In this document: piece by piece, positions 24,289 to 57,228 of the stretch | Layout of the letters: the number at the start of each line of letters is the position of its first letter | Position numbering within the stretch: the stretch's first letter is position 1 | From: an uncultured Hyphomonas sp. | GTDB taxonomy: Bacteria > Pseudomonadota > Alphaproteobacteria > Caulobacterales > Hyphomonadaceae | Direction of reading: 5' to 3' | DNA: 64,000 nt | NCBI GenBank assembly: GCA_964567455.1 | Contig: CAZMMU010000010.1 | Coordinates: forward strand, 496-64,495 | The notes under the pieces: model-generated | What the model was told of the DNA's origin: nothing | Databases searched by the model: none | The model's input: only the letters and a program-made list of their open reading frames with translations | Translations under genes and position numbers: made by a program

Positions 24289-25566
<1,278 letters not shown>

Positions 25567-25567
25567 T

Positions 25568-26581: not shown

Positions 26582-26585
26582 GGGC

Positions 26586-27875: not shown

Positions 27876-27881
27876 AACAAG

Positions 27882-31618: not shown

Positions 31619-32179
31619 ATGAAACTCCGAGTTCTTTTGCGTAAAGTCCATCATTGGGGATCTATTGTCATTGCGCTCCCGCTGCTTGTAATGATCGGTG
31701 CAGGCTTGCTCTTGATGCTGAAAAAAGAAGTGAACTGGATACAGCCGCCCACAGTCTCCGGCGTGTCTGCGCAGATGCCTCAGCTTGCAATGTCCGATCT
31801 GTTCGCTGCTGCACAAAGCGTCGATGAGGCGGATTTGCGCGATTGGGCTGATCTTGACCGGGTAGACATAAAACCCGCCAAGGGGGTTATCAAATTTATT
31901 GGTGAAAACCGCTGGGAGGTGCAGGTCGATACCACGACAGGTGAGGTGTTGCAGGTCGCCTACCGGCGTTCTGATTTGATTGAAAGCCTGCATGATGGCA
32001 GCTTTTTTGCGGACTGGACCAAGTTGTTTCTATTTCTCCCCTCGGGCGCGATTCTGCTTGTTCTGTGGGGGACGGGTTTATACTTGTTCTTTTTGCCACA
32101 TGTGAAAAACTACCAGAAACGACGGGCAAAGCGGCAGATCATTGCCTCTCACGCCAAAGACGATACGGATCGGGGTTGA
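31619..32179 (+). CDS. PepSY-domain membrane protein
   Basis: 186 aa with the N-terminal LRKVHHWGSIVIALPLLVMIGAGLLLM motif typical of PepSY-associated TM helices. A second TM lies near the C-terminus. Confidence 0.6.
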   Translation: MKLRVLLRKVHHWGSIVIALPLLVMIGAGLLLMLKKEVNWIQPPTVSGVSAQMPQLAMSDLFAAAQSVDEADLRDWADLDRVDIKPAKGVIKFIGENRWEVQVDTTTGEVLQVAYRRSDLIESLHDGSFFADWTKLFLFLPSGAILLVLWGTGLYLFFLPHVKNYQKRRAKRQIIASHAKDDTDRG

Positions 32180-32190
32180 GGAGCTTACGA

Positions 32191-35100
32191 ATGTTGAAAC
32201 AATTTTTCGCCGGAACAGTGCTGTTGATCCTGTCGGGCTTGTTCGCCGCGTCGGCGCAAGAGGTCGATCCCTCGCTCTATTCAGGGTTGGAAGCGCGCCT
32301 TGTCGGCCCTGCGGGAATGAGCGGCCGAATTGCGGCGGTGGATGCTGTGGCGGATGATCCCAATCATATTGTGGTTGGTGCATCGACGGGCGGGGTGTGG
32401 ATTTCCGAGAATGGCGGGCTCAACTGGACACCAGTGTTTGATGACCAGCCTGTGGCCTCCATCGGTGCGGTGGCGATCAATCAGACCAATCCCGATATTA
32501 TCTGGGTCGGCACCGGCGAGGGCAATGTGCGCAATTCGACTTCGGTCGGCGGGGGCGTTTTCAAATCGCTTGATGGCGGGCAGACTTGGACGCATGTCGG
32601 GTTGGAGGGGACGGAGCGTATCCACCGGATTGCGTTGCACCCGACCAATCCAGATGTCGCCTATATTGCCGCGCTCGGCCCGCTCTGGAGCGCAGGCGAG
32701 GATCGAGGGCTTTACCGAACGACAGATGGCGGCGAGAGCTGGGAGAAAATTCTCTATGTGAATGACAGCACGGGCGCGACGGATATTCGCATGATGCCCG
32801 GCAATCCTCAGAAACTGTTCGCTGGGATGTGGGAGTTTCGCCGCTGGCCGTATTTTTTCAAGTCGGGCGGTGAAGGGTCTGGTCTTTACGTCTCGCATGA
32901 TGGCGGGGACAATTGGACCGAATTGACTGAAGATGATGGTTTGCCCAAGGGCGAGCTTGGTCGCTCGTCCTTTGCGATGTCGCCCGCCGATCCAAAACGC
33001 GTCTATGCGCTGATTGAGGCGGAGGAAAGCGCGCTGGCCCGTTCCGATGATGGCGGACGAAGCTGGACGCTGGTGAATACCGACTTCGACATTAATGACC
33101 GACCGTTCTATTATGGTGATCTTGCCGTTGATCCGCAGAACGCCAATCGGGTTTACCGGATTGGGAGCCGTGTGAAAGTCTCCGAGGATGGCGGCAAGAC
33201 CTTCGAATATATGCCTGCGATTGATTGTTGTGCCGCGTCCAATACGGTCCACATTGACACCCATGCCTGGTGGATCAATCCAAACGATCCGCGCCATATG
33301 ATTGATGGGAATGATGGCGGCATAGCGATTACCCATGATCGCGGCGAGACTTGGCGCTTTGTGCGCAATTTGCCGCTGGCGCAGTTCTATCACATCGCGG
33401 TGGACAATGAGGTGCCCTACAATATTCTCGGCGGCTTGCAGGATAATGGCTCATGGCGTGGGCCGTCCGAAGTGTTCGAGAATGGCGGCATACGGAATTT
33501 CCATTGGCAAGAAGTGGCTTTTGGTGACGGGTTTGATACGCGCGCTGACCCGGAGAATGCCAATCGCGGTTATGCGATGAGCCAGGGCGGTGTCCTCTAT
33601 CGCTGGGATCTGGATAGCGGTGAAAGCCGATTGATTAAACCGGATCCGGTTGCTGGGACGGATCTCCGGTTTAACTGGAATGCTGGTTTTGCTCAGGATC
33701 CGTTCGATCCAGCGACCATTTATCTTGGCAGCCAGTTTGTCCACAAGTCCACTGATCGCGGCCTGACATGGCAAGTGGTTAGCGGTGACCTGACGACCAA
33801 TAATCCCGACGTTCAGACCTTTCGTGAAAGCGGTGGCTTGACCCCGGATGTAACAGCTGCGGAAAACTACACGTCGATCACGATGATTGCGCCAAGTCCG
33901 TTAGAAGAGGGTGTCATCTGGGTTGGCAGTGATGATGGCCGTGTTCATGTCAGCCGAAATGCTGGTGAAGATTGGCAAAGTGTTGAAGGCCGGCTGACTG
34001 ACGGGCCGGATGGTGCATGGGTGCCAATGATCTATCCGTCACCGCATGACGCGTCGGTCGCCTTTATCGTGCTCGACGATCACCGCAATGGTGACATGAC
34101 GCCTTATGCCTACAGGCTAGAAAATTATGGTCGGACATGGGTGCCGTTGGTCGATGGTGCCGTGAGCGGTTACGCAACGTCGATCCTGCAAGACAGTGTT
34201 GATCCCGATCTGTTGTTTCTTGGAACGGAGTTTGGTTTGCACATTAGCCATGATGGCGGGCGCCGCTGGATGAAGTGGACCCAGGGCGTGCCCACGGTTC
34301 AGATTGCAGATTTGGCATTACAAGCCCGCGAGAGTGATCTGATTGTTGGCACGCACGGCCGCGCCGCGTTCGTGATCGAAGATATTGCGGCCATCAGAAA
34401 CCTGTCTGCACGTAATTTCTCCGAGCGGTTCGCTCTGCTGAACATCACCCATGGCCAGCAGTACAGACCTGCACAGACCCCATCGACCCGATTTACAGGC
34501 AGTGGCGAGTTCCGTGCGTCCAATGCACCCTATGGCGTGATGATTACATTTATGGCGAGCGGCTCGGATCTGACCCATCCGGATAAGGAGCGCGAACGCG
34601 CGCGGGCTGCGGCAGCGCGGCGAGCGGCTGGTGAGGACAAGGATGACGTGTCCAAACCGCTAAAGGCGACCATTACAGTGATGAACGCGGCGGGGGAGAC
34701 CATACGCACTTTCAAAACGGATGTGCATCAGGGGATCAATCGCGCGGTATGGAATCTGCGGCGTGATGGCTTGCGACCGGTTTCTGCGGATGATGCTCCC
34801 AAAGACGGCACCCTTCCAGCGGGCCGTGAGGTTGTGCCGGGGACTTATACGGTCCGAATTGCATTTGATGGACGACAAGCGAGCGGCGCTATAGAGGTGC
34901 TCGCCGATCCACGCAGTCCATACTCGCTCGATGCGCAGGTGGCGAATGCCGCAGCGCTTGACGAGGTTGAAGCTCTGCAAGAGCGGATGAACGGGGCCTT
35001 GCGGAATATTCTCGCCGCGCGCCGAGACGTCGAAACAGTTGAAACATTGATCAAAGCCGAGACAGCAGGACTAGAACCTGACGCGCACCCGTATGCGGAT

Positions 35101-35424
35101 CTGGAGGCAGGTGCCAAGGCTCTTAAGGATGCTTTGACAGAGGCGGAGACGCGTTTCCGTGTTCCACCAGAAACCAGAGGTATCGTCTTTAGCGCGGACA
35201 AGGTTGGCAGTCAGATTGGCACAGCGGCCTTCTATCTGGGTTCGACATTTGACGGGCCGTCATCGGCAGCTCTGGCCGAGTTGGACCGCGCGCGTGTGGC
35301 CGTTGATCAAGCCATCACCAGCACGAATGATGTGCTCAACACGCAGTTGGCTGATTTCCGCACCGCTGTCGAGGCGGCTGGGCTTGGCCTGCTCAACCAG
35401 AGTCCGGTGACGCAGACGCCTTAA
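32191..35424 (+). CDS. Large secreted BNR/Asp-box repeat (sortilin/VPS10-like beta-propeller) protein
   Basis: The start is at MLKQFFAGTVLLILSGLFAASAQE (signal peptide). It has repeated S-x-D-x-G-x-T-W-type Asp-boxes (SENGGLNW, SLDGGQTW, TTDGGESW, SHDGGDNW, SDDGGRSW, SEDGGKTF, THDRGETW, STDRGLTW, SHDGGRRW). Confidence 0.75.
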   Translation: MLKQFFAGTVLLILSGLFAASAQEVDPSLYSGLEARLVGPAGMSGRIAAVDAVADDPNHIVVGASTGGVWISENGGLNWTPVFDDQPVASIGAVAINQTNPDIIWVGTGEGNVRNSTSVGGGVFKSLDGGQTWTHVGLEGTERIHRIALHPTNPDVAYIAALGPLWSAGEDRGLYRTTDGGESWEKILYVNDSTGATDIRMMPGNPQKLFAGMWEFRRWPYFFKSGGEGSGLYVSHDGGDNWTELTEDDGLPKGELGRSSFAMSPADPKRVYALIEAEESALARSDDGGRSWTLVNTDFDINDRPFYYGDLAVDPQNANRVYRIGSRVKVSEDGGKTFEYMPAIDCCAASNTVHIDTHAWWINPNDPRHMIDGNDGGIAITHDRGETWRFVRNLPLAQFYHIAVDNEVPYNILGGLQDNGSWRGPSEVFENGGIRNFHWQEVAFGDGFDTRADPENANRGYAMSQGGVLYRWDLDSGESRLIKPDPVAGTDLRFNWNAGFAQDPFDPATIYLGSQFVHKSTDRGLTWQVVSGDLTTNNPDVQTFRESGGLTPDVTAAENYTSITMIAPSPLEEGVIWVGSDDGRVHVSRNAGEDWQSVEGRLTDGPDGAWVPMIYPSPHDASVAFIVLDDHRNGDMTPYAYRLENYGRTWVPLVDGAVSGYATSILQDSVDPDLLFLGTEFGLHISHDGGRRWMKWTQGVPTVQIADLALQARESDLIVGTHGRAAFVIEDIAAIRNLSARNFSERFALLNITHGQQYRPAQTPSTRFTGSGEFRASNAPYGVMITFMASGSDLTHPDKERERARAAAARRAAGEDKDDVSKPLKATITVMNAAGETIRTFKTDVHQGINRAVWNLRRDGLRPVSADDAPKDGTLPAGREVVPGTYTVRIAFDGRQASGAIEVLADPRSPYSLDAQVANAAALDEVEALQERMNGALRNILAARRDVETVETLIKAETAGLEPDAHPYADLEAGAKALKDALTEAETRFRVPPETRGIVFSADKVGSQIGTAAFYLGSTFDGPSSAALAELDRARVAVDQAITSTNDVLNTQLADFRTAVEAAGLGLLNQSPVTQTP

Positions 35425-37085: not shown

Positions 37086-38047
37086 TGTCTGAGAGGTTGG
37101 AGCGCTATATGGATCGAGGTGTATTGGTTGTTGGCAGTATCAATCATGATGCGATTTATAATGTGGCGCACCTGCCAAAGCCACATGAGACTGTGCCCGC
37201 GAGCGGGTTTACGACCGCGCCCGGCGGCAAAGGCGCGAATCAGGCGGCCGCTTGTGCTCTGGCGACCGATCGTCCCGTGCGGATGCTTGGCTGTGTCGGA
37301 GACGATATGGCTGCCGCCTTCTGCCTGACCTATCTGGACGGGCAAACGGTGGATACTTCGCATATTGTGCGGCACGATGCTCTGCCGACGGGGACGGCTT
37401 GTATTCTGGTGAATGCGGCGGGGGACAATCTTATTGTTGTGGCGGCTGGAGCAAATGGCGGCCTTACGCCGGCGCATATCTCGGGCGCGCGCGATCTGTT
37501 CGCTGACAGCGAGATCATACTGACGCAATTGGAGAGCCCGCTTGATGCCGTGCGCAGCAGTTTGATGCAGGCGCGTGAACTGGGCAAACTGTCGATCCTC
37601 AATCCGGCTCCTTTTGTCGAGGGAGCCGGGACACTTGTCGCTCTTGCTGATGTGATCACGCCGAACCAGACCGAGGCCAGCTCGCTGACGGGCGTTGATG
37701 TACAGGATGAAGCGGGCGCACGTCTGGCCGCTCAAGAGCTGCTGGACATGGGTGCGCAGCAGGTTGTCGTGACACTTGGTCAGAATGGTTCGCTGGTCGC
37801 GACGCCGACGGCTGTGCGCTATGTGCCAGCTTACAAGATTGACAATGTCGTCGATACCAGCGGGGCGGGCGACGTCTATAATGGCGCGCTTGCTGGTGCA
37901 TTGTCGGATGGGGCCAATCTTGTGGAGGCAGCGCTTTTCGCTTCGGCGGCGGCGGCCATGTCTGTTCAAAAGCCCACCGCGAGCCATTGCGCGCCGACCC
38001 GCAAGGAGACTTTGGCTTTTCAAGCTGCGCGGCGTGCCGGACAATGA
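37085..38047 (+). CDS. rbsK: Ribokinase (PfkB family)
   Basis: It has GGKGANQA and the C-terminal DTSGAGDVYNGAL motifs. Its start overlaps the nucleoside hydrolase stop (TAATG). Confidence 0.85.
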   Translation: MSERLERYMDRGVLVVGSINHDAIYNVAHLPKPHETVPASGFTTAPGGKGANQAAACALATDRPVRMLGCVGDDMAAAFCLTYLDGQTVDTSHIVRHDALPTGTACILVNAAGDNLIVVAAGANGGLTPAHISGARDLFADSEIILTQLESPLDAVRSSLMQARELGKLSILNPAPFVEGAGTLVALADVITPNQTEASSLTGVDVQDEAGARLAAQELLDMGAQQVVVTLGQNGSLVATPTAVRYVPAYKIDNVVDTSGAGDVYNGALAGALSDGANLVEAALFASAAAAMSVQKPTASHCAPTRKETLAFQAARRAGQ

Positions 38048-38703
38048 CGAGCCCCTTCTTCGTTGAAGACGGTTTGGAGGTCTGGCGCACCAGCATTGAC
38101 ACAGGCGTATCAGCTTCGCCAGAAACGCTTGGCAAGATGTCCGCCGAGGATCGGGCGCGTTATGAGCGGCTCATTGTTCCGTCCGAGCGGAGCGCGTTCG
38201 CGGAATCCCGACGTGTGCTTAGGCGGATTGTCCAGCGGTCGAAGCTTGTGGCGAGTGATGTCGAAATCAGAGCGGATCAGGCGGCGCGGCCCGTGTTCTC
38301 GGGGAACACGAAGGCGCATATTTCCTGGTCGAGAAGTGGCCGGGCTATGGCCGTGGCTATCTGCACAAGCGGGTCTGTTGGGATTGATATTGAGCACCGA
38401 CGCGCGATGTCATACGCGCCCATGCTCGCCATGATCAGCGATGACGCTGAGCGCGCCGCTTTTGCGCAAATTCCTGCGCACGAGAAAGAGCATGCGTTCT
38501 TGCGGCTGTGGACGATCAAGGAAGCTGTTCTAAAATGTTTGGGCACAGGCTTCCAGACCAATGCGAAACGCATTGTGCCGCCCGTTACAGCTTATGCAGC
38601 GATGCCGATATCGCCTGTCTTGCTGACCTGTCTGGACCAAGGCTTCCGGCTAACCCTCTTTGAGGACGGTGCAAGCCTTATGTGTCTGGCGCGAGCGGTT
38701 TAG
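38044..38703 (+). CDS. 4'-phosphopantetheinyl transferase, Sfp-type
   Basis: The start is at MTSPFFVEDG (ATGA overlap with the rbsK stop). It has the VGIDIE and WTIKEAVLKCLG motifs of Sfp/PfaE-type PPTases. Confidence 0.8.
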   Translation: MTSPFFVEDGLEVWRTSIDTGVSASPETLGKMSAEDRARYERLIVPSERSAFAESRRVLRRIVQRSKLVASDVEIRADQAARPVFSGNTKAHISWSRSGRAMAVAICTSGSVGIDIEHRRAMSYAPMLAMISDDAERAAFAQIPAHEKEHAFLRLWTIKEAVLKCLGTGFQTNAKRIVPPVTAYAAMPISPVLLTCLDQGFRLTLFEDGASLMCLARAV

Positions 38704-41700
38704 GGGGCTTTCGGGACCAGTCTGATGGATAGATCATTGGCTTCGTAGATGCGCAGGGCGTCACACCATAGAGATCCACGTGCGGTGATGAGCTGCGTAT
38801 CGCCAGCGTCCACGATGCTGGTGATCTCGATAATTGTCGTCACCCGTTTCCGGATCGGCGTGACTTGCCCACGATAGGACCAGCTGACCGGTTCGCCCGT
38901 TGCGGTGGATTCAAATCGTAGCGTGCTGTCATCCAAGGCCAAACCTTTGAGGATGGCGGCGCGCTTTAGGAGTTGGACCATGGCGTCAAGGCCCAATGAA
39001 CCTGGCTGAACAGGGTCCTGGTAGAAGTGGGCTTTGAAATACCAGGCATAGGGGTCAATGTCTTGTTGACCACGGATCAGGCCAAGTCGAGCTTCGCCGC
39101 CGCTGGGATCAAAATAGTCGACGCGGTCAAGCATTCTCATGCGGCCATCGGGCAGCAGGGACTGACCCTCATTTATGATTTGCGGTGTTTCGGGCAATGC
39201 CAAGAACGCGCGTTGTGCGTCTGTGGTTTTTAGTCCAGCCTGGCGGACCAGTGCGTCGAGCGGGAAGAAACCGAAGCTGGTCTCTAGCGTCATGACAATT
39301 TCGCCGTCCGGAAGTGTGGCGGTCAGTTCGAAAAAGACGATGGTCATCGGACCTGCGCGCGAGAACCGCGTCATTTTTGATGTCACCCGTATTGGCCCGT
39401 CGCCCGGGCCGATCTCGCGTAAGACGTGGCCATTGCCATCAAGATTACGAAAGCACTCTCCGCCATTGAGTGCAAATCCACCATGGCTGGCGAGCCAGCC
39501 ACAGGGTTGGAGGACGACTTCGACAAGCACGGCGAACGGCATTTTTCCGTTGGCATTGTCAGCGAAATACCAGGCGTCGTCAGGGACATCATATTCGGTG
39601 ACGACGGTTGCGCCGTCTTCGGGGGCGTTAGGACGTGTCGAGATCGATAAGACGCGCGAAATAAAGTGGTAGGGCGGTTGTGGCAGGCGGGGTACGCGTC
39701 CAGCGGTATCGAATGGCTTGTACATGGCACCAAATGCGTCTGATGGTGCGCCATCTCCACACGCCTGAAGCGCTGCCCAATCGCCGCGTGACTCACCTTG
39801 GGGGCCAATCGGTGTCTTGATCGTGCCAGCGGGTACAACCGGCCAATTGCGCCGCAGGCGAATGCCGAATCTTGGACAGTAAAAGACTTTCTTCCCGTCA
39901 CTTGTCGCGAGCAATGCTGCAAAGAGCACTGGTGTGTCGCCGTCGATAATTTCGTCGATGAAAATTTCATATTCGAGATCGTGAGGCATGTCCGGGATGA
40001 CTTGGCCTCGGCAGACAAATTTAAAGGTCTCGTCGCTGACGGGTTCAATCGTAAAACCATCGCAGGCGATGGTTAGCCCAATCGCGGCGGCGTAGAATTC
40101 GAGCGCTTGCACGGCCGCTTCGGCCATCAGCGTTCCTGGCATGCAGGGGTCTTCATGGAAATGGCCATCATAGAACCACGCATCCGTAGGCACATGGGCG
40201 TGGGCCTTCAAATAGCCGCGTTTCCACGGGCCGCCGTTTGGCGCGAAGATAGAAACGTGGTCGAAGAGAGCCAGTTGAGCGTCCGGTATGTACGGCGGGT
40301 TCGTATGTGGCGCACAGGCTTCGAAGCCCTCTCCGAAGCAGGCATACGCGTCTCCTGTGCGAAATTTTGCGAGATCATTGGGTGAGAAACTTGTTTTCTG
40401 TGAGACGGTTTGCGGGGTGAACGGAGCCGGAGCGGCTGTTGGCGGGGCGCTCTTTTGGGCGCTCCAGAGTACGCCCTTGCCAGCGGCCAATTCGTCATCT
40501 GTGAAGAACCCCGCCTGTCCGTTGCGGACGGAAAATAGACGGCGGCCATTTGTGTAACAATCATACTGGAAAAAGAACATGCGTACACCGCTCAGTGTCG
40601 CGTGGCCTGTGATCTCGATCTGGTATTTCAGCGTGTCGCCTGCGCGAGGCAGTCCGCCATCATGGAGGGTGAGCTCGCAGCCAAGCAGCCTGTAGACCCG
40701 TTCATCGCAATTTTTGAGATCGGCCCCCATCCATGAAATCAGCGATAGATCGGCTTGCCCGGCTTCAATCAGAGGGCCCGGCCGCATAAAGCCCTCATGC
40801 ATATACCACGCATCCTCGTTTACGTCGGTTTCTGTCCAGATGCGCCCCTTGCCTTCGGTGAGCGGGGCTGCGTCAATTCCGGTAATTCGGTCGACGAGCA
40901 AAAGGGGTGGGTTAGGCAGTCGGACCTGACGACGATACTGATCCTGCCTGGAGAAGGCTTCGCCGAACAAATCGGAGATCAAGCCTGTCGACGCTTTCTC
41001 GATTTGCGGACGGGCGAAGCTGGGGCCAGTTGGCGGGAAAGGCGGAAGGGCCAGTTTGCTGGTGGGGATACTATTGGGCGCAGGCGCTCTCTGGGGGATA
41101 TCTGCCACCAATGTCCCGAAATTCGGGCGCGCGAGCGATGGGGCGACTGGCATTATGGCGCGATCTGTCATGGGGGCTTCTGTGTCCGTGATTGGGTCCA
41201 AGCGAGGCGCAGGGAGGTGAGCTGGATGTGTCAGTTTTGGCGATGGGCCGGACGCGTGGGACCAGCCTGTTTTGCGGGCAGCCTCAAGTGTCGCGCTGAC
41301 CTTGGCCATGTCTGGCGACCGTCCATCGGCGAAGAGCGCACAAGACAGGGCCGTGATCTGACCAAGATCGGACATGTCAATCCGGTCCGCCGGAATGGCA
41401 AGGTGCGGCTTTTGTCCGAGGGTTTTTGCAATGCCCTGCGAGAGGGTATCGCGGGGGCCGATTTCGACGAAGGTGCGGACGCCGTCCTGATAAGCCTGCT
41501 TGACGGTGGCTGGAAAATTGATCGGACTGATCGCTTGCCGCGTCAGTACGCTCGCAACTTTCGCCTTGGTTGGTTTGTAGGCAGCGTTCCCCGCATTGCT
41601 ATAAAGGCGCACATCCGGCTTGGCCGATGTCGGACGTGTATGCAGCCGACGCCACGTATCGGCATAGGGCGTCATGGCATTGGCGTGGACGATCAAGTGC

Positions 41701-44700
41701 TGGTTCATTGCCATGCCTGATCCCGCGCCGAGGCGCGCAGCGACCGCTTTGCAGGCGTCTGGCGGACCGCCTATGACGCAATCTTCAGGGGAGTAGATGA
41801 TCGTGATCTCGACGTTCGAGCCTTCCGGAATCGCCTTCTCCACGGCGGCAATGGGCGCGTAGATATGCCAGTTGGTCCACTTGGCAGGATGGTCTAAGCC
41901 CCAGGCCTCGCGCGCCGTTTCAAACGCACCGCCGAGGTGACGCTCATACATTTCGTCCGCCGCGATCTCGTCAAGCAGATAACCTGCATCTTTCCAGAAT
42001 TTAAAAGCGATCAGGGCATTGGTTTCGCCAAGCGATAGGCCCATCACGGCATCTGGTTTCAGGCCCAGCATGTCGCGCAACAGCAGGGTTTGCACCTGAC
42101 TTAGCAAGGTCACAGCGCAAAGCTGCTCATAGGCGCTGAGTTCGGGCTTGGACAAAAGATGCGCAATGCGTGCGGCCTCCGGGAACGCGTCACCCATGCG
42201 GGCTGAAAGGTCCGGAAAGGCCATGAACAGGCCTCGCCCCATGCGCGGATATGCGGCGGCAGATCCGGTAAATACGAAGGCCATCTCGCCGGTTGCTTTA
42301 CCTGATCCGAATGTGATGCCTTCGCTCGCCGGTACTTGACCCGCTTGGAGCGCCATTTGCGCGATCCTCTGGCGTTTGGCGAGACTATCAGCGCTGGATG
42401 CATGTATTGCGATGCGGGCTGTGCCAGCGCCGCCCGTCTTGTTGCGTTCGATGCGCGCGGCAAGCGCCTTTTTCGACTTTGCTGCGGCCCAGTACATGTG
42501 AGGCGCAGGTCGCAGGGGGTCGCCCGATGTTGCAGCTTCGGTGAGTTGCCAAGCGCCATAGGTCGGTGGTGCTTTGGTCACGCGTGGTTTCGAATAGGGC
42601 TCTGGTCCGATGCGATGCCCTTTGCGCGCCAGAAGGGCTGCCGCTGCAAGATGGAAGAGATCGTCTGCTATGGGGGCGCGGCCATAGACGGTTTCGATCA
42701 ATTTGTACGCATGGTGATCTACTCCGAAGGCTTTGGCGGACGCGACTGTGGCATACTCGACCTCACTTTCGCTTAGGTCACTTCGGCGCTTGAGTATGAG
42801 ACATGCAGCCAGATCGGCTGGCACGGTGGTTTGTCCGCTGGTGGCGAGCGCCTGAGCGCGGACGGGCTCGGTTGCAAAGTCAGCGGCGGCGACAATGGCG
42901 AGGTCAATCTCCCCCGCTTGCAAGGCCTCCAGGGCGAGGGCGAGTACTGTGCGGCCCGTTTGCTCTTCGGCAGAGATGGTGAACCCCTGACCACGTAGGT
43001 CAACCGCTGCGTTCAGACGATTGGCTGGCATATTCGGCATGGCCCCGAGGACATCCGCGCTTTCAATCGGGGCGGCGATCTGGTCTTTGCGCTGGTCAAG
43101 ATCCGGTTTGTCAAGCGTCTCGCCGAGCCGAGCGTCCAGCCTTTCGCGCAGGAGCCAGCGAGCTGAATCTGCTGCACATCCCATTCCCGTAAAGACACCA
43201 ACTCTGTGCAGAGGCCCAAGCTCGATGTTTGCCAGCGCTTCTTCGCTCGTGTCCAGAACTGCGAGTTGTTGAGCTTCAGCCTGCTTCAGATCGGCGGGGG
43301 GGACGCGGGCAAACGCTGGATTGAGTGGCAAGGTCTCGGATCTTCCTTGGCGTTGCAATGGGGGAGACATCAGCCGCCGGACAATTCGATTTCCGCCGCG
43401 ATCAGGCCCGGCCAGCGCGCCGATCCCGCATATCGAGATGGTATGCTGAGAGGCCCTTAAGGATGGCGCGGTTTGCTGGCGCGCGCGGTTCTTCGGTGGT
43501 TCTTCGAGAATGAGGTGGGCATTGTTGCCGCCAAAACCGAAATTGCTGATCGCTGCGCGCCTTGGCGCGTCTGCGTGCCATGGCGTTGCGGTTCTATGCG
43601 GGGTCATGCAGGTCGTGTCGAACGCGTCTATGGCGGTGTCGCTCAATCGCGTCGGCGGCAACGTCTTGTGCTCGAAGGCGCTTGTCATTTTGAGCAAGCT
43701 GGCCATCCCCGCTGCCGTAATCAAGTGTCCGGTGTTTGATTTGAGCGAGCCGACGGGCAGGGCGGAGCGGTCTTTAAACAGGCGTGCAGCAGAGCGGATC
43801 TCGACGCCATCACCCACAGGGGTACCGGTTGCATGGCATTCAAGATAGCCAATGGTATCAGGATGAATTTTCGCTGCGGCGTATGCGCGTTTCATGGCTT
43901 CGAGTTGGCCATCTTCGTCTGGCGCAAGCAGACCTCTGCGGCGGCCATCATTGGACAGACCGGTGCCTAGAATCAGACCGAAGATTTTCTCACTCTTGCT
44001 GACATCGGCAAGGCGTTTGAGCACAACAGCCGCAGCTCCTTCAGCAGGGATAAGGCCGTCGGCGCTTGTTGAAAAAGGTCTGGACTGACCACTGGGGCTC
44101 AAGGCGCGCAGGGCTTCAAACCCTTTGTGAAGCATGAGATTGTCAGATGCATTGACTGCGCCAACAAGGGCCACGTCAATTGTGCCGTGGCGTAGTTTCC
44201 GGCAGGCAATGTGCAGCGCATACAGAGATGAAGCGCAGGCTGCATCAAGGGAGAAAGCCGGGCCAGTTGCGTCGATCGACTGCATGATCAAGCTTGAGGG
44301 CAGTCCGGAATTGAAAGCGTTACGCGGATCAATGTCAGAGTGTCCGTTGAGCCAGATGTCGCCCGCATAGTCGGCTTTGGCGCGGCTCGGATAGGAGAGA
44401 TTCGCCAGAATGACGGCCGTGCGCCCGTTGGGCGCTTCGGGTCGTTCTGCTTCTATCCATGCGTCCTGCGCTGCTTTCAATGGCCATTGGAAAACCGGAT
44501 CAAGAGTTGCTGCGCCTAGCGGTTCAAAAGTGCTCGCGTCGAATGCGTCGGCAAAGCCTGAGACATATCCACCCGGATAGGAAAGTTTCGCGGCCTCTCT
44601 GTCGGACAGTCCCCAGATGTTTTCAGGTGGAGGCGTGATCAGGCTCTTGTTCTGCACGACGGCATCCCACAAAGCGTCGGGCGTCAGACAGCCGGGGAGT

Positions 44701-44750
44701 ACGCACCCGCGTCCGATAATCGCAATCGGCGTTTGCGGTGTGTCGGTCAT
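38700..44750 (-). CDS. pfaC: PfaC-like multidomain synthase: KS - chain-length-factor - acyltransferase - 2x (pseudo-DH + FabA-like DH)
   Basis: 2016 aa. The KS has [22 protein letters not shown] and [11 protein letters not shown]. A second KS-like region lacks the active-site Cys ([10 protein letters not shown]). The AT has GLSLGE. Two FabA-type dehydratase sites are present: [16 protein letters not shown] and [16 protein letters not shown]. Confidence 0.9.
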   Translation of the reverse strand: [2016 protein letters not shown]

Positions 44751-45940
44751 GACCAGGTGTCCCCGATCAAGAGTTCGATATGGTCGTGGGCACCATGCAG
44801 CATTTGGCTGGAGAAGATATGCGCCCCGGCGTGAAGAGGGATCAGGGCGATGCCCTGCGCTTTGAAGTGGGCTGCAAGACCCTCATCCACCATGCCCCCG
44901 TCCCAAGGCCCCCAGTTGAAGGATTTAATATTCGCATGCGGAAGAGCCGCGCGCAGTCCATAAGCGGCTTGATTGAGCGCCTCGTTCGCCATGGCATAAT
45001 CCGATTGGCCGATATTGCCAAACCGGGCGGCAGCGGAGGAGAACAGAGCGATATGCGTCAGGGCCTGGACGTCCAATTGCTTCAGAACGGTGTGGAGCCC
45101 TATGGCTTTTGTGCTGAACACGCGATCAAATTCGTCGCGCGATTTGTCCATGATCAGCTTGTCCGCCAAGACACCGGCGGCATGGATGAAACCCGTAATC
45201 TCGCCAAGTGATGTTCGCACGTCCTGGAGGGTCGAGGCCACTTGTGCGCCATCGGTTAGATCGCAGCTATAATAGTGTGCCGAGCCGCCCGCCTGTTTGA
45301 TGGCCTGAAGCGAATGACGGATTTCGGCACTGGCAAGCATGCGTCTTGCTGATTTGTCTATTTCGGCAAGGCTTGGCTTCTGGCCCGCATTGCGCGCCTG
45401 CCCGATGAGGGCACCGCGCAAGGTTTTGAGGTCGCTGGTTGGGTCAACACCTTGGGGCCAATCGGTAATCTTTGAGCGGCCCAGAAGTGCAAATCTGTCG
45501 CCGGTTCTTGCAGCAAGATCTGCAATGCAGGCGGCTGTTACGCCGCGCGCGCCGCCTGTGACGAGCCAAGTCTTGCCAGTCTGTCGGCGTGTGCGCTCAA
45601 TATGTTGAATGCTCGCCGCAAGGACCGGCGTGGCTGTTGTTCCAGAATGGTCAATGCGGACCTCCGGCGCGGCCAGCGAGAGGACTTGTCCGATGTTTGA
45701 CGCAGAGTGCGCAAGTGAGATGCTCTGGACCGACATGTCTGGCCATTCGCGAGCTGCCGTCTTGGCCAGGCCGGGGAGGCCGTAATTGAATTGCGAAAGA
45801 TCGTCAGCGTGGGAGGCGAGTGGGGACAGAATGACGAGCCGTTTGCCAGACAGACACCGAAAATCGCGGGCATGAGACAGTGCCGCCCAGTGTGCATCCG
45901 GCGCGGGCAATCGAGAAAAGCCGGAGGTAATGATGGCCAC
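44747..45940 (-). CDS. Ketoreductase (SDR) module of the pfa-like synthase; N-terminus probably incomplete as called
   Basis: It has TGGARGVTAACIADLA (NADPH site) and SSAAARFGNIGQSDYAMANEAL (catalytic Tyr). The called GTG start is simply the first start codon in a frame that stays open up to 46246. ATGA overlap couples it to the PfaC-like gene. Confidence 0.75.
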   Translation of the reverse strand: MAIITSGFSRLPAPDAHWAALSHARDFRCLSGKRLVILSPLASHADDLSQFNYGLPGLAKTAAREWPDMSVQSISLAHSASNIGQVLSLAAPEVRIDHSGTTATPVLAASIQHIERTRRQTGKTWLVTGGARGVTAACIADLAARTGDRFALLGRSKITDWPQGVDPTSDLKTLRGALIGQARNAGQKPSLAEIDKSARRMLASAEIRHSLQAIKQAGGSAHYYSCDLTDGAQVASTLQDVRTSLGEITGFIHAAGVLADKLIMDKSRDEFDRVFSTKAIGLHTVLKQLDVQALTHIALFSSAAARFGNIGQSDYAMANEALNQAAYGLRAALPHANIKSFNWGPWDGGMVDEGLAAHFKAQGIALIPLHAGAHIFSSQMLHGAHDHIELLIGDTWS

Positions 45941-46188
45941 ATCCGCGCGGGACGTGAATGTTTCGACCAGAGAGGCGGTGTGGCCGCCGTCTGTGAGCTG
46001 AGCGAGGAGGCTTGCGGCCAGTTCGCCACCGTCTCGGGTGATCTCGATATGCCCTGTCGGTGCGGATGTCGCCTGATTAACTGGCGCTATCTCCTGCCAT
46101 ACGAGCGGACAAACGCTGACACCATCATATGTATACAGATCAGGCGTGGTTTGGGGACGTATCTGGGCCGTCGGCGACGAACCGCCCC

Positions 46189-49100
46189 CTATTGAAAAAA
46201 ATCGCTGATCTTCCGAATTGTGCGCAGCTCGGCGAGTTGATCGGATTCAATTTCTGGCAGATCGGGGAGGCTTTCACGCAAAGCGGAGAGAATTTCAACC
46301 TGTTTGATTGAGTCGATACCGAGTTCGCCTTCCAGATCCATGTCTTCTTCCAGCATGTCAGCCGGATAGCCGGTCTTCTCGGCGATTAAACTGCGAATAG
46401 CGTCTATGCTGATGCCGGAGTTTGGTTGGGCTGTCACAGGGGCGGGGCTTGGCGCGGAGGTGGTAGCGGGAGCAGGATGGGTCGGCGCGCTAATTGATCC
46501 GCTAGAGCCGGGCGCTGATATCGTTTCAGATTGGGCCACGAAACCGGCAATCAGACGGATCGTGCGCAGCTCGACCAGCTTTTCCGCTTCGACTTCCGGC
46601 AAATTCGGGATTTCTTCGCGCAGGGTGGAGAGAATTTCGACCTGTTTGATCGAGTCCACGCCGAGTTCGCCTTCAAGGTCCATATCCGGGTCGAGCATGT
46701 CTGTCGGGTAGCCGGTCTTGGTCGCAACGAGAGACCTGACGAAAGCGAGAGGGTCGACCCCTGGTGCGCGGGCGGTTGCAGGGGGGGCTTGCGGCACGGC
46801 TGCGCTCGGAACATTTTCTGGAGCTGGAGCTGGAGCTGGAGCTGGAGCTGGAGCTGGAGCTGGAGCTGGAGCTGGCCGGGTCGCTTGTGGAGAAGCCGCA
46901 GGGGCTGGCGCTGATGCGGCAAAGTGCGGCATCGCGGGCGGACTGTGCGAAATGACGGGCACAGGCAGTTGCGGCGGCGGTGTGCTGCTGGAAAAAGCGC
47001 TCAGGAAGGCGGTGTGTGCAGCCGTCATCAGGTGCATATATTCTGCGTGCCGTGCTGAAAGATGGCTATAATAATCCGCGGGCAGCGGCGCATTGTGCTG
47101 TGGTGCGGGCTCGGCAGGGTGCGAGATGGGCGCAGCGGGTGGTTGCAGATGACTGGTGTCGGGCATGGAATCGGTCCTGATGTTTTCTGGCGTTGGGGCA
47201 GGCGCGGAAGCTGTGTTTGGTGGGGGAAGGGCAGATGCGCCGTCTGGTGGCGGATAAGGTTTTTGATAATTCGCGCCGCATATATCGACGGAAAATTTCG
47301 GTGGCTCAGCTTGAGCCGGGCATGCTGGAAGATTTGTGTACAGATTTTCAATATTCAGCGGCAGTCCCAGAATGGCGAGTTTTCCGATCGCTGATAGAAA
47401 TGTCTCGACCTCGTTCTGACGCTTGTGATCGAGCGAGATGATTTCGACATCGGACGTGTCCAGATTGTTCTTTGCCAATGTTGACACGACAGAGCCCGGA
47501 CCGATCTCGACGAAGATACGCGCGCCCGCCTCATACATCGCGGCAATGCTCTGACGGAACCGGACCGGCTTTCCGATTTGGTCGCCGAGGCGTTTCTGCA
47601 TGCTTCTGGGCGTTTTCGGGTAGGGGGCAGCGGAGCTGTTGGCGTAGACCGTGCGCTGTGGCGTAGAAAAAGTGTAGGCGGCCAGCTTGTCCTTGAATGG
47701 CGTCACCGCTTTCTCGACGCAGGAAGAGTGAAATCCTGTGGCCACGTTCAGCCTGTGTGCCTTCAGCCCTGCTGCTTTGCAACGCGCTTGAGCGGTGTCG
47801 ATCAAGGATAGTGGTCCGGATAGAACAATCTGATTTGGCGCGTTATCATTGGCAATGACAAGCTCTGGTGTCAGTCCTTCCAAAATCCCAGAGATGTCTT
47901 CGATTCCGGCTTGCACAGCGAGCATGCCGCCTTCGCTGGACTGCGCGGCGTCTTGCATAATACGGCCACGCAGGCGCGCAATTTTTACGGCTGTCGCTGA
48001 ATCGAAAACTCCCGCAGTGTGAAGCGCCATGACTTCCCCGAAGCTATGACCGGCGCACATGTCGGGCGATAGGCCCAGATCGTCGAGAAGAGCAAGCTGG
48101 GCGAGGCTGACCGCGGCAATTGCGGGTTGGGCGTGCACCATGTCCGTCAGGGTTCTGGTTTGCTCGGCCGCCTCTGCTTCGGTGAACGCTGCGGGTGGGA
48201 AGGCGACTGTGTGCAGGGCCGTCTCGGCTGGTCCGGTATCTCCTGCACAGATGTCCCAGACCCGCCGCGCATTTGGGAAATTGCGGGCCAGGGCCGCGCC
48301 CATGCCAACATATTGGCTGCCCTGTCCGGCAAAGAGATAGGCGAGCTTGCCTTGAGCGGGCGCGCCTGACTGATAATGCAGACCGGCGCCAAGGGGGGTG
48401 TTTTGCGGAGTGCCGGCCGCGATGAAGTGTTCGAGTTTTCGCGCTTTCTGCCCGAGTGAGTCCGGTGTCGCGGCAATTATGGCGATGCGGTATTGGGCGT
48501 CGGATTTGAAGCTTGCATGGCTTTGGCTTGCCAGACGGGACAGGTCGTCCTCATGCTTGACTGCCCCCGCAACCGATTGGACCGCGCGCAGCAAATCTTC
48601 CTGCGTGTCTGCACCAAGCAGGAACAGTTCCGCATCCATCACGCGGGGTGGGTGGGCTGCGTTAGAGCCTTCATATTCTTCAAGCGTTACATGGAAGTTG
48701 CTGCCACCAAAACCGAAGGAGCTGACAGATGCGCGCCTCGGAGTATCGGGCGCTGCGATCCATGGGCGGGCTTCGGTGTTGATATAAAATGGTGTGTCGC
48801 CGGATAGTGCCGGGGCAGGGGTCTCAACTTTCAAGGTTGGCGGGAGTGTTTTCCGACTAAGCGCGTTGACGATTTTGATCAGGCTCGCCGCTCCGGCGGC
48901 GGCTTTCGTATGCCCGATTTGAGATTTGACCGAGCCAATCGCGCACCATGGCTTCTGATCATCTTCAGGTTTGCCAAAGACCTTGTGTAAGCCGTCCAGT
49001 TCAGCCTTGTCCCCCGCAATCGTTCCGGTGCCGTGGGCTTCAACCAATTGTACCGTATCTGGCGCGTATCCAGCTTGGTTGTATGCGCGGCCCAGCGCCA

Positions 49101-50073
49101 GTGCCTGACCAGATGAGAGCGGCGCATAGATTGCGGTTGCGCGGCCATCGGATCCGCCGCCAAGACCGCGAATGACTGCATGAATGCGATTGCCATCTCG
49201 CTCGGCATCGTCGAGCCGTCTGAGCGCCAGCATGCCGATGCCCTCGCCAAGCATGGTGCCGTCGGCCTCAGCAGAGAAAGGGCGGCAGTCACCGGTCGGT
49301 GACAGCGCCGGCGTTTTTGAAAAGCACATGAACATCAATATATCGTTGAGCGTGTCCACACCGCCCGTCAGCACCGTATCGGAATCGCCGGAGTTCAGTT
49401 CGTGTAAGGCAATTTGCATGGCCGAGAGGCTGGAGGCGCAGGCTGCATCGGTGACATAGTTGCTGCCGCCCAGATCGAGGCGGTTGGCGATGCGGCCCGC
49501 AATGACGTTGCCCAGAAGGCCGGGAAATGTGCTCTCACGCCACTCTGTGAAGTTTGAGGCGATCCGGTCGGCTATATCTTGCACATCGCGTTCGGCAAGT
49601 CCGGCTTCGCGCATGCCTTTGATCCACGCAGGCCGGTGCAGGCGTCCGGCCATATGCGCGGTTAGCTCGGTTGCCGATGCGACGCCGAGGACAACGCTGG
49701 TACGCGACGTGTCGATTTTGCCACCGCTTTCACGCATGGCTTCGTCAAGCACTTGCTGAGCGGCAATCAAGGCCAGCAATTGAGATGTGTCGGTGGAGGC
49801 CAATGCGTTTGGTGGTACGCCAAAGGCGACCGGGTCGAAGGCCTTGGGGGAGAGAAATCCGCCGCGTTTTCCATATGTTTTGTCAGCGGCGCTGGCGTCT
49901 GGATCGTAATAATCTTCGGGCAACCAGTGAGAAGCAGGAACGTCTGTGAATGTATCAACACCTTCGACGATGTCACGCCAGAAGCCTGTCGTGTCACCGC
50001 GGCCCGGAAAAATTGCGCCTATACTGACAATGGCGATTCCGTCACGAGTGGGTTTGCGCCGTCTTTGCGTCAT
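46189..50073 (-). CDS. pfaA: PfaA-like multidomain synthase: KS - malonyl-CoA:ACP acyltransferase - long Pro/Ala linker - 2 tandem ACPs
   Basis: 1294 aa. The KS has [22 protein letters not shown] and [11 protein letters not shown]. The AT has GHSFGE and GFHS. The ACPs have [13 protein letters not shown] (Ser codon 46651-46653) and [13 protein letters not shown] (Ser codon 46309-46311). Confidence 0.9.
   Translation of the reverse strand: [1294 protein letters not shown]
46818..46871 (-). repeat. Perfect hexanucleotide tandem repeat (CTGGAG)x9 on the plus strand, encoding a (Pro-Ala)n linker in the PfaA-like protein
   Basis: Read directly from the sequence: nine uninterrupted CTGGAG units. 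The minus-strand translation is [23 protein letters not shown], upstream of ACP1. Confidence 0.9.
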
Positions 50074-50075
50074 AT

Positions 50076-51707
50076 TCAGGTATAGATCCTTGGACTAAAT
50101 GAAAACATGTCTGCTGGAACTGCGACCCCGACACTGCGCAGTTGACCCGCGCGGGTCAACACAGCACCACCTTCCAGGAGATTCCACGCAATTTGTTTCA
50201 CCGTCCGAGCGACAAGAGGTTCTAGCGGCGTGCCTTTGACCCACTCATTGAATGCGCCCATGGCGGGGCCGCACCATATCTGGAAGTCGGATTTGCGCTC
50301 TTCGACGCCCTCGCGTGCCCATTGTGCGCCCATGAACAGATAGCGGCGACAGACCAGCGCGAATCTCTTATTGCCGTCTTCATCTGCCTTTGCGACGGTG
50401 TCCGGATTGATGTTCAAAAGATAGGCGCGGGTGGCTTGCCATGCACTTTCGAAGGGTTCGCCAAGAACGCTTTCGACCCAAGCTTTGTCCTTCGGCGGCA
50501 GATGATCGAATTGGGCACCGCTGCGATACATAGCGTAGAGCTTTTCGCCACGCATGGCGAACAGGGTGCCGCGCTTGAGTACCTGGACTTTTACCCCCTG
50601 TTCGAACATGTCGGCGGCCGGCGCCATCATAACATCCGCCGGTCCGGCGCCCGCCAGCGATTGCCTGCCAGCCTGTGACAAGCCAGATTCAACAGCAGAC
50701 TGATTAACTGAGCCGGTGAGAACATAGGCTGCGCCCATCTGGAAAGCTGATGCGACCGCGTGCGGTGTTGCAATGCCGCCAGCAAGGCCGATGCGGATTG
50801 TGTTGGGTGGATACGAGTGTCGCCGCGAGATACGGGCACGGGCCTGGGTGAGTGAGCTGAACACCACGCTAGCGGGCCGATTGTCCGTGTGCCCGCCCGA
50901 ATCCGCCTCTGCTGTAATATCAGCGGCGACCGGGACGAGCGCTCCAAGGCGGGCTTGTTCGGCGGAGATGTGTCCGCTTTGGACAAGTTGATCAAGGATT
51001 TTTTGCGGGGCGGGGGCCATGAACTGTTCGGCGACTTCGGCGCGTGAGACTTTCGCGAAGACATGGTTTTGCCGCTTGATCTCGCCATTGCTGGCTCGTG
51101 TTAGCCCAAGGCACGTATATCGAACGATCTCGGGCGACAATCGCATATAGGCAGAAGCAGAGACCCGCCGAACCGATTGCTCCAGGAATAAATCTATGAC
51201 CTCGGCTTCGTATCCGGGCTGCTGGGGCGTGTGGATGACATTCGCGCCCCACGAGGCGGTGGCATCTGGCAAGCCTTGGCGGATTTCGGTCAGCCCAAGC
51301 CTGATCTCTTCGACCTGTAGTCCGGCGCTGCCATAAAATCCGAGCAGACCTGCTTTGGCGGCAGCGACAACCATTCGCGGCGTTGCGATCCCACGTGCCA
51401 TTTCACCGACAATGTAAGGAAAACGGATATTGTGATCCTCGGTGAATTGTCTGTCACCCAGACGTTCAGGATAGATTGGCGGCAGATGATAGCGTTCCGA
51501 GGCCGGCGGAACCTTCGATGCGTCCAGCGGGTGCGCAAGGACGTTCGCTCCCGTGTCCTCAAACACAACTGGCCGGCGGGGATTGAGGATCAAATCGTGA
51601 AGGGCTTCAGTTTGCGTCTTGTGTGTCACGTGCCCATCATGTCCGAGTAAGGAGTGTTTAACGTCGTTTTGACTTTGACAGTAAGCACCTCGACTTGGAC
51701 ATGTCAC
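50076..51707 (-). CDS. pfaD: PfaD-type enoyl reductase (FMN TIM-barrel, nitronate monooxygenase-like)
   Basis: 543 aa with NIRFPYIVGEMARGIATPRMVVAAAKAGLLGFYGSAGL and IGLAGGIATPHAVASAFQMGAAYVLTGSVNQ segments typical of PfaD/trans-ER proteins. Its stop lies 2 nt before the PfaA-like ATG. The GTG start is uncertain. Confidence 0.85.
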   Translation of the reverse strand: MTCPSRGAYCQSQNDVKHSLLGHDGHVTHKTQTEALHDLILNPRRPVVFEDTGANVLAHPLDASKVPPASERYHLPPIYPERLGDRQFTEDHNIRFPYIVGEMARGIATPRMVVAAAKAGLLGFYGSAGLQVEEIRLGLTEIRQGLPDATASWGANVIHTPQQPGYEAEVIDLFLEQSVRRVSASAYMRLSPEIVRYTCLGLTRASNGEIKRQNHVFAKVSRAEVAEQFMAPAPQKILDQLVQSGHISAEQARLGALVPVAADITAEADSGGHTDNRPASVVFSSLTQARARISRRHSYPPNTIRIGLAGGIATPHAVASAFQMGAAYVLTGSVNQSAVESGLSQAGRQSLAGAGPADVMMAPAADMFEQGVKVQVLKRGTLFAMRGEKLYAMYRSGAQFDHLPPKDKAWVESVLGEPFESAWQATRAYLLNINPDTVAKADEDGNKRFALVCRRYLFMGAQWAREGVEERKSDFQIWCGPAMGAFNEWVKGTPLEPLVARTVKQIAWNLLEGGAVLTRAGQLRSVGVAVPADMFSFSPRIYT

Positions 51708-56200: not shown

Positions 56201-56268
56201 CCTAATTCGCACATGCCATCACGCGAAACTCCTTTGCCTTGGCGGAATCTCGCGCTAATCAGATCGGC

Positions 56269-57228
56269 ATGACGACATATCTTGATTTTGAAAAGCCGAT
56301 CGCTGAACTGGACACCAAGATCCACGAGCTTGAAGCGCTTGCCGCCACCCGTGAAGGGCCATCTATTGCGGACGAGGTCCAGAAACTGCGCAGCAAATCT
56401 GCGAGGCAGTTGAAAGACCTCTACTCGGATCTCTCTGCCTGGCGCAAAACCCAGGTCGCAAGGCATCCTAACCGACCGCATTTTCTCGATTATGTAACGC
56501 ATCTTTGCGAGGATTATCAGGAATTGTCCGGCGACCGCGTCTTCGGCGATGACAATGCGATATTGGGGGGGCTCGCGACGTTCAATGGACGCTCGGTGGT
56601 GGTCATGGGCCACGAAAAGGGGCGCACCACCGAAAGTCGATTGAAGCATAATTTTGGCATGGCCCATCCTGAAGGTTATCGCAAAACCGTGCGCCTGATG
56701 AATTTGGCGGAGAAGTTTAATCTGCCCGTTTTATCCTTTGTTGATACTGCCGGAGCCTATCCGGGTAAGGCGGGCGAGGAGCGCGGACAGGCCGAGGCGA
56801 TTGCCCGTTCGACCGAGCGCTGTCTGACGTTACCTGTGCCGATGGTGGCGCTGATTATCGGGGAGGGCGGCTCTGGTGGTGCTATTGCCATTGCAGCGGC
56901 CAATAAAGTCCTGATGCTGGAGCATTCGATCTATTCCGTCATTTCGCCAGAGGGGTGCGCGTCGATCCTTTACCGCGATGCCGTCAAAGCGAAGGACGCT
57001 GCCGAAGCGATGAAGATAACCGGGGAGCACTTGCTGAAGCTCCATATTGTCGATCACGTCATCAAGGAACCCGTGGGCGGGGCCCATCGCGATCCCGAAC
57101 AAGCGGTCAAAAATGCGGGCAAAGCGATCGAAAAAGAGCTGAAAAGCTTGCTCAAGCTGACACCTGAGGAGATCAAACGCCAACGACGTGAGCGGTTTTA
57201 CGCCATCGGTCGCGAAGGCATGAGCTAG
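56269..57228 (+). CDS. accA: Acetyl-CoA carboxylase carboxyltransferase alpha subunit
   Basis: The start is at MTTYLDFEKPIAELDTKIHEL, the canonical AccA N-terminus. FVDTAGAYPG and GEGGSGGALAI-like motifs are present (IGEGGSGGAIAIA). Confidence 0.93.
   Translation: MTTYLDFEKPIAELDTKIHELEALAATREGPSIADEVQKLRSKSARQLKDLYSDLSAWRKTQVARHPNRPHFLDYVTHLCEDYQELSGDRVFGDDNAILGGLATFNGRSVVVMGHEKGRTTESRLKHNFGMAHPEGYRKTVRLMNLAEKFNLPVLSFVDTAGAYPGKAGEERGQAEAIARSTERCLTLPVPMVALIIGEGGSGGAIAIAAANKVLMLEHSIYSVISPEGCASILYRDAVKAKDAAEAMKITGEHLLKLHIVDHVIKEPVGGAHRDPEQAVKNAGKAIEKELKSLLKLTPEEIKRQRRERFYAIGREGMS

Follow-up and report, generated by a model that had tools for sequence, protein, structure and literature searches.

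A candidate -1 ribosomal frameshift at the ACP/KR junction of a pfa-type secondary-lipid synthase locus in an uncultured Hyphomonadaceae bacterium

We analyzed a 64,000-nucleotide stretch of DNA (hereafter the window) on contig CAZMMU010000010.1 of an uncultured Hyphomonas sp. (Hyphomonadaceae), which carries a locus of the iterative pfa type, resembling the polyunsaturated fatty acid (PUFA) synthases. The locus probably encodes a secondary-lipid synthase in which the PfaA-like subunit is decoded by a -1 frameshift. As read from the sequence, its ketoreductase (KR) is almost certainly made through a conserved -1 ribosomal frameshift, by which it is joined to the synthase subunit encoded before it, and the best reading of the junction is that one recoded pfaA gene would give rise to two proteins, KS-AT-ACP2 and KS-AT-ACP2-KR. 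A preliminary description of the locus had placed the KR on a frame of its own; this is literally so, but the evidence favors an extension of the PfaA-like gene by -1 frameshift over an independent gene.

The frameshift cassette

The gene encoding the two acyl carrier protein (ACP) domains ends in GAU UUU UUU CAA UAG, with the heptamer U_UUU_UUU (46201-46195) in the zero-frame phase. The KR frame lies at -1 relative to the ACP gene and is open across the stop of that gene, and a -1 slip on the heptamer reads ...SDFF|SIGGGSSPTAQ... into the KR; the predicted trans-frame junction peptide of the window is ISDFFSIGGGSSPTAQIR. In Hyphomonas beringensis 25B14_1, a cultured clade member, the corresponding tryptic peptide would be AIADFFQIR, with ...AIADFFR as the C-terminus of the zero-frame product. 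A hairpin begins 6 nt 3' of the heptamer. The junction thus has the features by which a -1 cassette is recognized: (i) a heptamer in the zero frame, (ii) a covarying structure 5-9 nt (here 6) downstream, and (iii) an overlapping, coding -1 open reading frame (ORF) that lacks an initiation signal of its own. In Escherichia coli, heptamers of the form H_HH.U_UU.Y belong to the most efficient class of -1 shift sites, and U_UU.U_UU.C is used by some insertion sequence (IS) elements (PMC4066793).

Conservation of the junction was examined with an alignment of KR homologs, which was used to scan genome and metagenome collections; 22 loci of the clade carried the junction on a contig. In every one of them (22/22), GAU UUU UU(U/C) is followed by a single sense codon, the stop, and then a hairpin of ~35 nt with a GGGRYGG...CCRYCCC base. 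Four further relatives, including a metagenome-assembled genome (MAG) of Granulosicoccus, were fetched afterwards as a prospective test, and the covariance model described below found the cassette in all four. Across the resulting clade loci U_UUU_UUY is invariant (26/26) and its zero-frame phase is constant. The Asp codon is always GAU and the first Phe codon always UUU, even though, in several of the loci, no more than 5-15% of the Phe codons are TTT. The linker between the junction and the KR is likewise kept in frame, at 20, 22, or 23 codons.

A break located at a T7 homopolymer, which is a classic hotspot of both error and mutation, could in principle reflect a sequencing or assembly mistake, or a recent inactivating mutation that has left a decaying pseudogene. 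We regard this as hardly credible. The junction is identical in the window and three other independent assemblies, and it recurs in cultured isolates and many MAGs; variants with T6 keep the same frame relation; and the KR shows a ratio of nonsynonymous to synonymous change (pN/pS) of 0.22, indicating purifying selection. Further, the T-run clade is monophyletic on a neighbor-joining tree of the KR and is deep (40-50% KR identity), and every member has kept the break.

The hairpin was assessed on a gapless alignment of 19 sequences, in which 80.5% of cells were paired, as compared with 50-56% in slid controls. Compensatory changes were present in 9 of the 14 hairpin pairs, and none of 500 shuffles reached the observed values. 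RNAalifold independently gave the lower 10 bp of the hairpin. A covariance model built from the same alignment matched only these junctions in 1.36 Mb (E up to 2e-5; next best, E = 0.15); its matches include locus L087, which was outside the training set (although its 54-nt element is apparently identical to that of the trained L086), and L092, which is identical to L006. A scan of the whole window against Rfam at the gathering threshold returned no matches, and no intrinsic terminator was found at the junction on either strand, the U-run lying before the hairpin and not after it. An upstream stimulator resembling a Shine-Dalgarno (SD) sequence was considered and rejected, as no conserved GGAGG-like sequence stands 5' of the heptamer.

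The same fused protein would result if RNA polymerase added one U within the T run, since a single extra U restores the fused frame and no ribosomal frameshift would then be required. Homopolymeric A and T runs are known sites of such slippage (PMC1088944; PMC4066793), and runs of A9-A10, a length typical of transcriptional slippage, occur at the same junction in other phyla. Many members of the T-run clade, however, have only T6 (UUUUUUC), which is short for the polymerase but makes a good ribosomal heptamer, and both the invariant phase of the heptamer and the placement of a conserved hairpin exactly 6 nt downstream, the hallmark of ribosomal -1 frameshifting, speak against slippage during transcription. 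We consider transcriptional slippage quite unlikely in this clade. We infer that the slippage is ribosomal, and what we say of its efficiency and of the relevance of the two-product ratio is to be taken in the same way.

The KR reading frame and the predicted fusion protein

Called mechanically, the KR frame begins at a GTG and encodes 397 aa (44747-45940, minus strand). This GTG, at 45940, is the first ATG, GTG, or TTG in the frame; it lies 248 nt past the upstream stop and inside the conserved KR fold, and it is replaced by ATT in L001, a relative that is 86% identical. Both standalone and fused KR homologs align to the stretch that precedes it, from about LYTYDGVSVCP onward. When the window and L001 were compared over the 66 codons before the GTG, pN/pS was 0.41 in the KR frame and 0.96 and 1.31 in the other frames, with no indels. 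These seemingly intergenic codons are coding and under purifying selection. Modeled with AlphaFold2 from LYTYDG onward, the KR (462 residues) had a predicted local distance difference test (pLDDT) score of 89.4, its residues 1-65 making up an ordered part of the structural subdomain that consists of strands and one helix, and Foldseek superposed the model on complete, two-subdomain polyketide synthase (PKS) KRs at template modeling (TM) scores of 0.67-0.74 over ~480-510 columns. GTG 45940 was therefore rejected as the true KR start, being unconserved in L001 and such that its use would remove ordered elements of the structural subdomain.

The KR might nonetheless be a separate protein, initiated at a near-cognate start (e.g., a CUG at the conserved D-L-Y, or an AUA) or by reinitiation after the pfaA1 stop, with the U-run and hairpin either incidental or serving coupling or mRNA stability. 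Public annotations do list standalone KR proteins of 409-507 aa in the clade, and the window and L001 share a conserved CTG. The called N-termini vary among genomes, however, and in most clade loci no start is present upstream of the conserved Y-x-x-V-x-V motif. Canonical starts before the conserved region are absent from the window, L001, and L004, and in-frame KR starts are not preceded by an SD-like motif in any clade locus. Separate translation would also leave unexplained the invariant -1 frame relation, the conservation of GAU UUU UUY at synonymous sites against codon bias, and the constant distance of 6 nt to a covarying hairpin, and it does not fit a linker that stays in frame. On this evidence a separate KR is unlikely, and we continue to prefer production of the KR by -1 ribosomal frameshifting.

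Several points weigh against that preference. In seven members of the clade (L084, L085, L088, L089, L090, L091, and L164) an in-frame ATG or GTG stands just upstream of the conserved N-terminus, and independent initiation of the KR is possible in these. The shuffle-based covariation statistics are inflated by the relatedness of the sequences, and the hairpin of the window itself has a weak inner stem and a modest z-score of -1.4 to -2.0. A KR made by frameshifting only would be substoichiometric to the KS, which is unusual for an enzyme that acts in every elongation cycle. Finally, the support for it is computational throughout.

The conceptual fusion is a protein of 1775 aa with the order KS-AT-ACP2-KR and without a terminal PKS-type DH. 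Against TIGR02813 (PfaA) it scored 1255.7 bits, as compared with 979.6 for the zero-frame product alone and a cut-off of 1010.1. Fused PfaA homologs of other clades span the conceptual junction in a single local alignment that covers 93-100% of the ACP2-linker-KR query. Among the best 120 matches, those spanning the junction all came from other clades, at 33-39% identity, and no in-frame fused member of the T-run clade was present.

We propose the following model for decoding of the locus. Most ribosomes would stop at the UAG (46191-46189) and release the KS-AT-ACP-ACP protein of 1294 aa. A fraction would slip -1 on the heptamer, with the hairpin 6 nt downstream acting as stimulator, and would pass through a linker of ~20 residues into the ketoreductase, yielding KS-AT-ACP-ACP-KR; this longer product would have the canonical PfaA domain order minus the terminal PKS-type DH. 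The dedicated 4'-phosphopantetheinyl transferase (PPTase) would prime the two ACPs, the PfaD enoyl reductase (ER) would act in trans, and the PfaBC-like subunit would supply KS-CLF-AT-DH2.

Domains, neighborhood, and product of the locus

The four minus-strand frames and the convergent PPTase frame were recovered from a mechanical list of ORFs (Table 1). A gap of 2 nt (50074-50075) separates the ER gene from pfaA1, the start of the pfaBC-like gene overlaps the KR stop in an ATGA (44747-44750), and the convergent stops of the pfaBC-like and PPTase genes overlap at 38700-38703. The frames and spacings given in the preliminary description agree with these coordinates, its domain inventory matches the Pfam and NCBIfam annotation, and the catalytic motifs that it called intact were each found again in the translations.

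Table 1. Features of the synthase locus, in window coordinates
Feature	Position	Strand	Basis and remarks
PfaD-family flavin mononucleotide (FMN) enoyl reductase, trans-acting ER	50076..51707	-	TIGR02814; Pfam NMO and FabD_helical_ins; longest ORF 543 aa
pfaA1 zero-frame product, KS-AT-(Pro/Ala linker)-ACP-ACP	46189..50073	-	1294 aa, C-terminus ...ISDFFQ*; Pfam, NCBIfam, motifs
Slippery heptamer U_UUU_UUU	46195..46201	-	Zero-frame codons GAU UUU UUU; direct sequence reading
Sense codon and zero-frame stop, CAA UAG	46194-46189	-	Directly 3' of heptamer
GC-rich hairpin, ~35 nt, presumed frameshift stimulator	46154..46188	-	Single-sequence folds, covariation, RNAalifold, covariance model
KR coding region, -1 frame	44747..46195	-	482 codons plus stop; linker and complete two-subdomain ketoreductase
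pfaBC-like KS-CLF-AT-DH-DH (FabA-type)	38700..44750	-	2016 aa; Pfam, NCBIfam, motifs
Sfp/HetI-type 4'-phosphopantetheinyl transferase, convergent	38044..38703	+	PF01648; longest ORF call from 37987; L002 gene call

The ER scored 539.8 bits against TIGR02814 (PfaD family; cut-off 449.25). Its start is ambiguous (51630-51707, minus strand), the protein being 543 aa from the GTG and 517 aa in the gene call on the near-identical contig L002; the match to the PfaD model starts only at ER residue 79. Pfam and NCBIfam resolve the zero-frame pfaA1 product into KS-AT-ACPx2, and the translation contains the KS residues C212, H347, and H388, the AT motif GHSFGE, and two copies of the ACP motif DSIKQVE, with serines S1141 and S1255. 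The KR carries the motif YAMAN. In the pfaBC-like protein we identified PF00109 twice, PF02801, and PF07977 in three stretches (246 bits); the second KS has C172, H306, and H342, and the FabA-type histidines H1530 and H1908 each stand in HF..DP..PG. The second AT has the motif GLSLGE and scored just over the cut-off for PF00698 (35 bits) and under that for TIGR02816 (70.9 bits; cut-off 144.3). The PPTase matched PF01648 (ACPS superfamily) at 55.5 bits and the HetI model at 63 bits, the latter under its cut-off; simple patterns recognized neither the P0 nor the P1 motif of Shulse and Allen in it. Domain scans of the locus and its flanks detected no AGPAT, no thioesterase (TE), and no PKS-type DH, as the preliminary description had also concluded for AGPAT and thioesterase and for a DH after the KR. 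Its overall reading, an intact pfa-type iterative fatty acid synthase/PKS locus with a dedicated PPTase in an alphaproteobacterium, stands.

The flanks hold unrelated genes that are not conserved, encoding a PfkB kinase, a nucleoside hydrolase, a Fer2/MoCoBD oxidoreductase, and a TonB-like protein. Outside the synthase genes, the PPTase is the only gene syntenic across the clade, and no conserved neighbor hinting at a product (TE, AGPAT, or ole genes) was found. An accA gene (56239-57228, plus strand), which would serve malonyl-CoA supply, lies ~4.5 kb upstream of the ER gene and is not syntenic with the cluster in relatives; its product shares 91% identity with the AccA of a Hyphomonadaceae MAG and 76-79% with those of Henriciella and Hyphomonas, which places the host in the Hyphomonadaceae. 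An operon encoding all parts of a branched-chain 2-oxoacid dehydrogenase (E1 alpha, E1 beta, E2, and E3; 24340-29276, plus strand) lies ~9 kb from the locus, and the only other A/T run of at least 7 in the window (24862-24868) falls in frame inside its E1 alpha gene (GFFS), with no frame break. A large BNR/Sortilin-Vps10 repeat protein (32065-35424, plus strand) and a penicillin-amidase family protein (29273-31453, minus strand), both unrelated to the lipid locus, flank the nucleoside-salvage genes beside the PPTase.

Nothing in the sequence identifies the lipid that is made, in keeping with the preliminary description, which held that the product could not be read from it. A literature search found neither a published product for a Hyphomonas-type pfa cluster nor a characterized close relative. 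A long, likely cis-unsaturated fatty acyl chain is suggested because the locus combines a FabA-type DH pair with a trans-acting ER. The absence of a PKS-type DH, the presence of two ACPs only, and the lack of offloading enzymes make the type of chain less certain; PUFAs, moreover, are not known from Hyphomonas or Henriciella.

Relatives and comparison with known systems

We mapped the domains of the window by tblastn onto 164 related loci. The layout ER / KS-AT-ACPn-KR / KS-CLF-AT-DH-DH is very common among them, being present in Myxococcota, Actinomycetota, Acidobacteriota, Planctomycetota, and others, and the exact layout of the window (two ACPs, the KR in a frame of its own, and the PPTase convergent) is found again in Hyphomonas beringensis and other Hyphomonas, in Henriciella marina, and in several MAGs. 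Among species-representative genomes, the closest relative of the window KR (47% identity) is that of L004, a Pseudomonadales MAG labeled Gammaproteobacteria, as is the Granulosicoccus MAG (L168), which also belongs to the clade. The T-run type of cluster is thus not confined to Alphaproteobacteria, which may reflect horizontal transfer or mis-binning.

The last ACP and the KR lie in different frames at 44 loci. In 41 of these the KR frame is -1 and continues open through the stop, and a run of T6-8 or A6-10 is present within 40 nt of the stop in each of the 41 except L096. Cases with A-runs occupy five or more separate positions on the KR tree, and their identifiable hosts are a cyanobacterium (Xenococcus), Desulfobacter, Paenibacillus, Myxococcales (on a contig where the run is A6), SAR324, and Lambdaproteobacteria. 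In the low-GC genomes with A-runs, the -1 frame is open from the run into the KR. Loci in which the ACP gene ends just past an A8-A10 run, or past A6 in the Myxococcales contig, are L019, L097, L032/L134, L049, L051, L060, L099/L101/L105, L119, L137, L136, L162, L066, and L024/L113. Five fused pfaA loci (L033, L036, L071, L073, and L152) have an in-frame A10 in the same ACP-KR linker; the homopolymer occurs in both in-frame and out-of-frame states among relatives.

Transcriptional slippage explains tracts of A9-A10 no less well than ribosomal frameshifting does, and the pattern looks like recurrent recoding at the ACP/KR boundary in other phyla, possibly by transcriptional slippage. Two loci stand apart from the rest. 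In L116, the KR of which groups with the canonical pfaA of the Vibrio/Photobacterium type, an A8 run lies ~11 nt before the stop and the ACP/KR break is -1; this break may stem from pseudogene decay, a faulty assembly, or slippage. In L136 (1057-4521), the -1 product past the A10 run is 1155 aa, far longer than a KR alone. Judging by eye from its sequence, the KR may be followed by a DH-like region and then by a C-terminus that resembles an acyltransferase and has an NHQ motif, which would make the architecture different from that of the window.

On balance, we lean toward a wider reading, in which the "split pfaA" throughout this clade (Hyphomonadaceae, Granulosicoccus, and related MAGs) would be one recoded gene, and a conserved, previously undescribed programmed -1 ribosomal frameshift at the ACP/KR boundary would set the ratio of KS-AT-ACP2 to KS-AT-ACP2-KR. 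On this reading, the analogous A8-A10 tracts at the same boundary in Cyanobacteria, Desulfobacter, Paenibacillus, SAR324, and Lambdaproteobacteria point to repeated evolution of recoding at this domain junction among PUFA-synthase-like megasynthases. If the frameshift reading is correct, the standalone annotations "SDR family oxidoreductase" in these clusters are probably wrong, a "pfaA2" expressed heterologously from its annotated start would yield a truncated or absent KR, and subunit stoichiometry may be tuned through frameshift efficiency.

The preliminary description had taken the partition of domains for an uncharacterized architectural type. This claim fails, as the layout is widespread among the mapped loci and the combination of split pfaA and fused pfaBC was cataloged in 2011 (Shulse and Allen 2011; PMC3098273). 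In that scheme, Type D has a split pfaA [KS-AT-ACP5 / KR] and a fused pfaBC [KS-CLF-AT-DH2] and is the Psychroflexus type, P. torquis producing arachidonic acid and eicosapentaenoic acid; Type H likewise has pfaA split and pfaBC fused; and Type L comprises clusters with pfaD first (PMC3098273). Judged from domain layout alone, the window has the arrangement of Types D and H: pfaA1 [KS-AT-ACPn] and pfaA2 [KR] in separate frames, pfaBC [KS-CLF-AT-DH2], and an adjacent ER gene and PPTase. It differs from the published types in having only two ACPs, and in that the split, treated there as two genes, is in the window a predicted -1 frameshift site. The domain partition is therefore a known and widespread layout, and the novelty sits at the ACP/KR junction.

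Like Type L and the myxobacterial pfa1-pfa2-pfa3 clusters, the window has its ER gene first. It does not otherwise belong with the myxobacterial clusters, in which pfa2 ends in KR-DH and pfa3 in AGPAT; in the window, the KR is not followed by a DH, nor the DH pair by an acyltransferase. With the gammaproteobacterial pfaABCDE of Shewanella, Photobacterium, and Moritella it shares KS, AT, tandem ACPs, KR, KS-CLF, a FabA-type DH pair, a PfaD ER, and a PPTase, and its PfaD and conceptually fused PfaA score over the curated cut-offs of the respective models. The two differ in gene order, in the placement of an AT inside the PfaC-like protein, in the number of ACPs (two in the window vs. 4-7), in the PKS-type DH, which the PfaA-like protein of the window lacks, and in the predicted decoding of this PfaA through a frameshift.

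Recoding at the ACP/KR junction is apparently undescribed in the searchable literature. We found no mention of frameshifting in PKS, fatty-acid, or PUFA synthases in Antonov 2013 with its supplements, the Atkins 2016 review, or a 2025 frameshift survey (Sharma et al. 2011, in Molecular Biology and Evolution, lies outside this scope), and no open-access paper that joins ribosomal frameshift, ketoreductase, and acyl carrier protein. If true, our reading would add a bacterial gene family that is neither mobile nor viral to those with a textbook -1 cassette, and this cassette would be the first within a fatty-acid or polyketide megasynthase, as far as the literature search could tell.

The closest parallels to the junction itself are the orfA-orfB cassettes of the IS3 and IS1 families and E. 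coli dnaX, which share with the window an X_XXY_YYZ heptamer, a spacer of 5-7 nt, and a downstream stem-loop. In those systems, as is predicted for the window, one mRNA yields both a short zero-frame protein and a trans-frame fusion with a catalytic domain. The window is unlike them in that no upstream SD-like stimulator was seen, its zero-frame stop lies one codon past the heptamer, and the cassette stands inside a biosynthetic megasynthase gene, at the boundary between ACP and KR.

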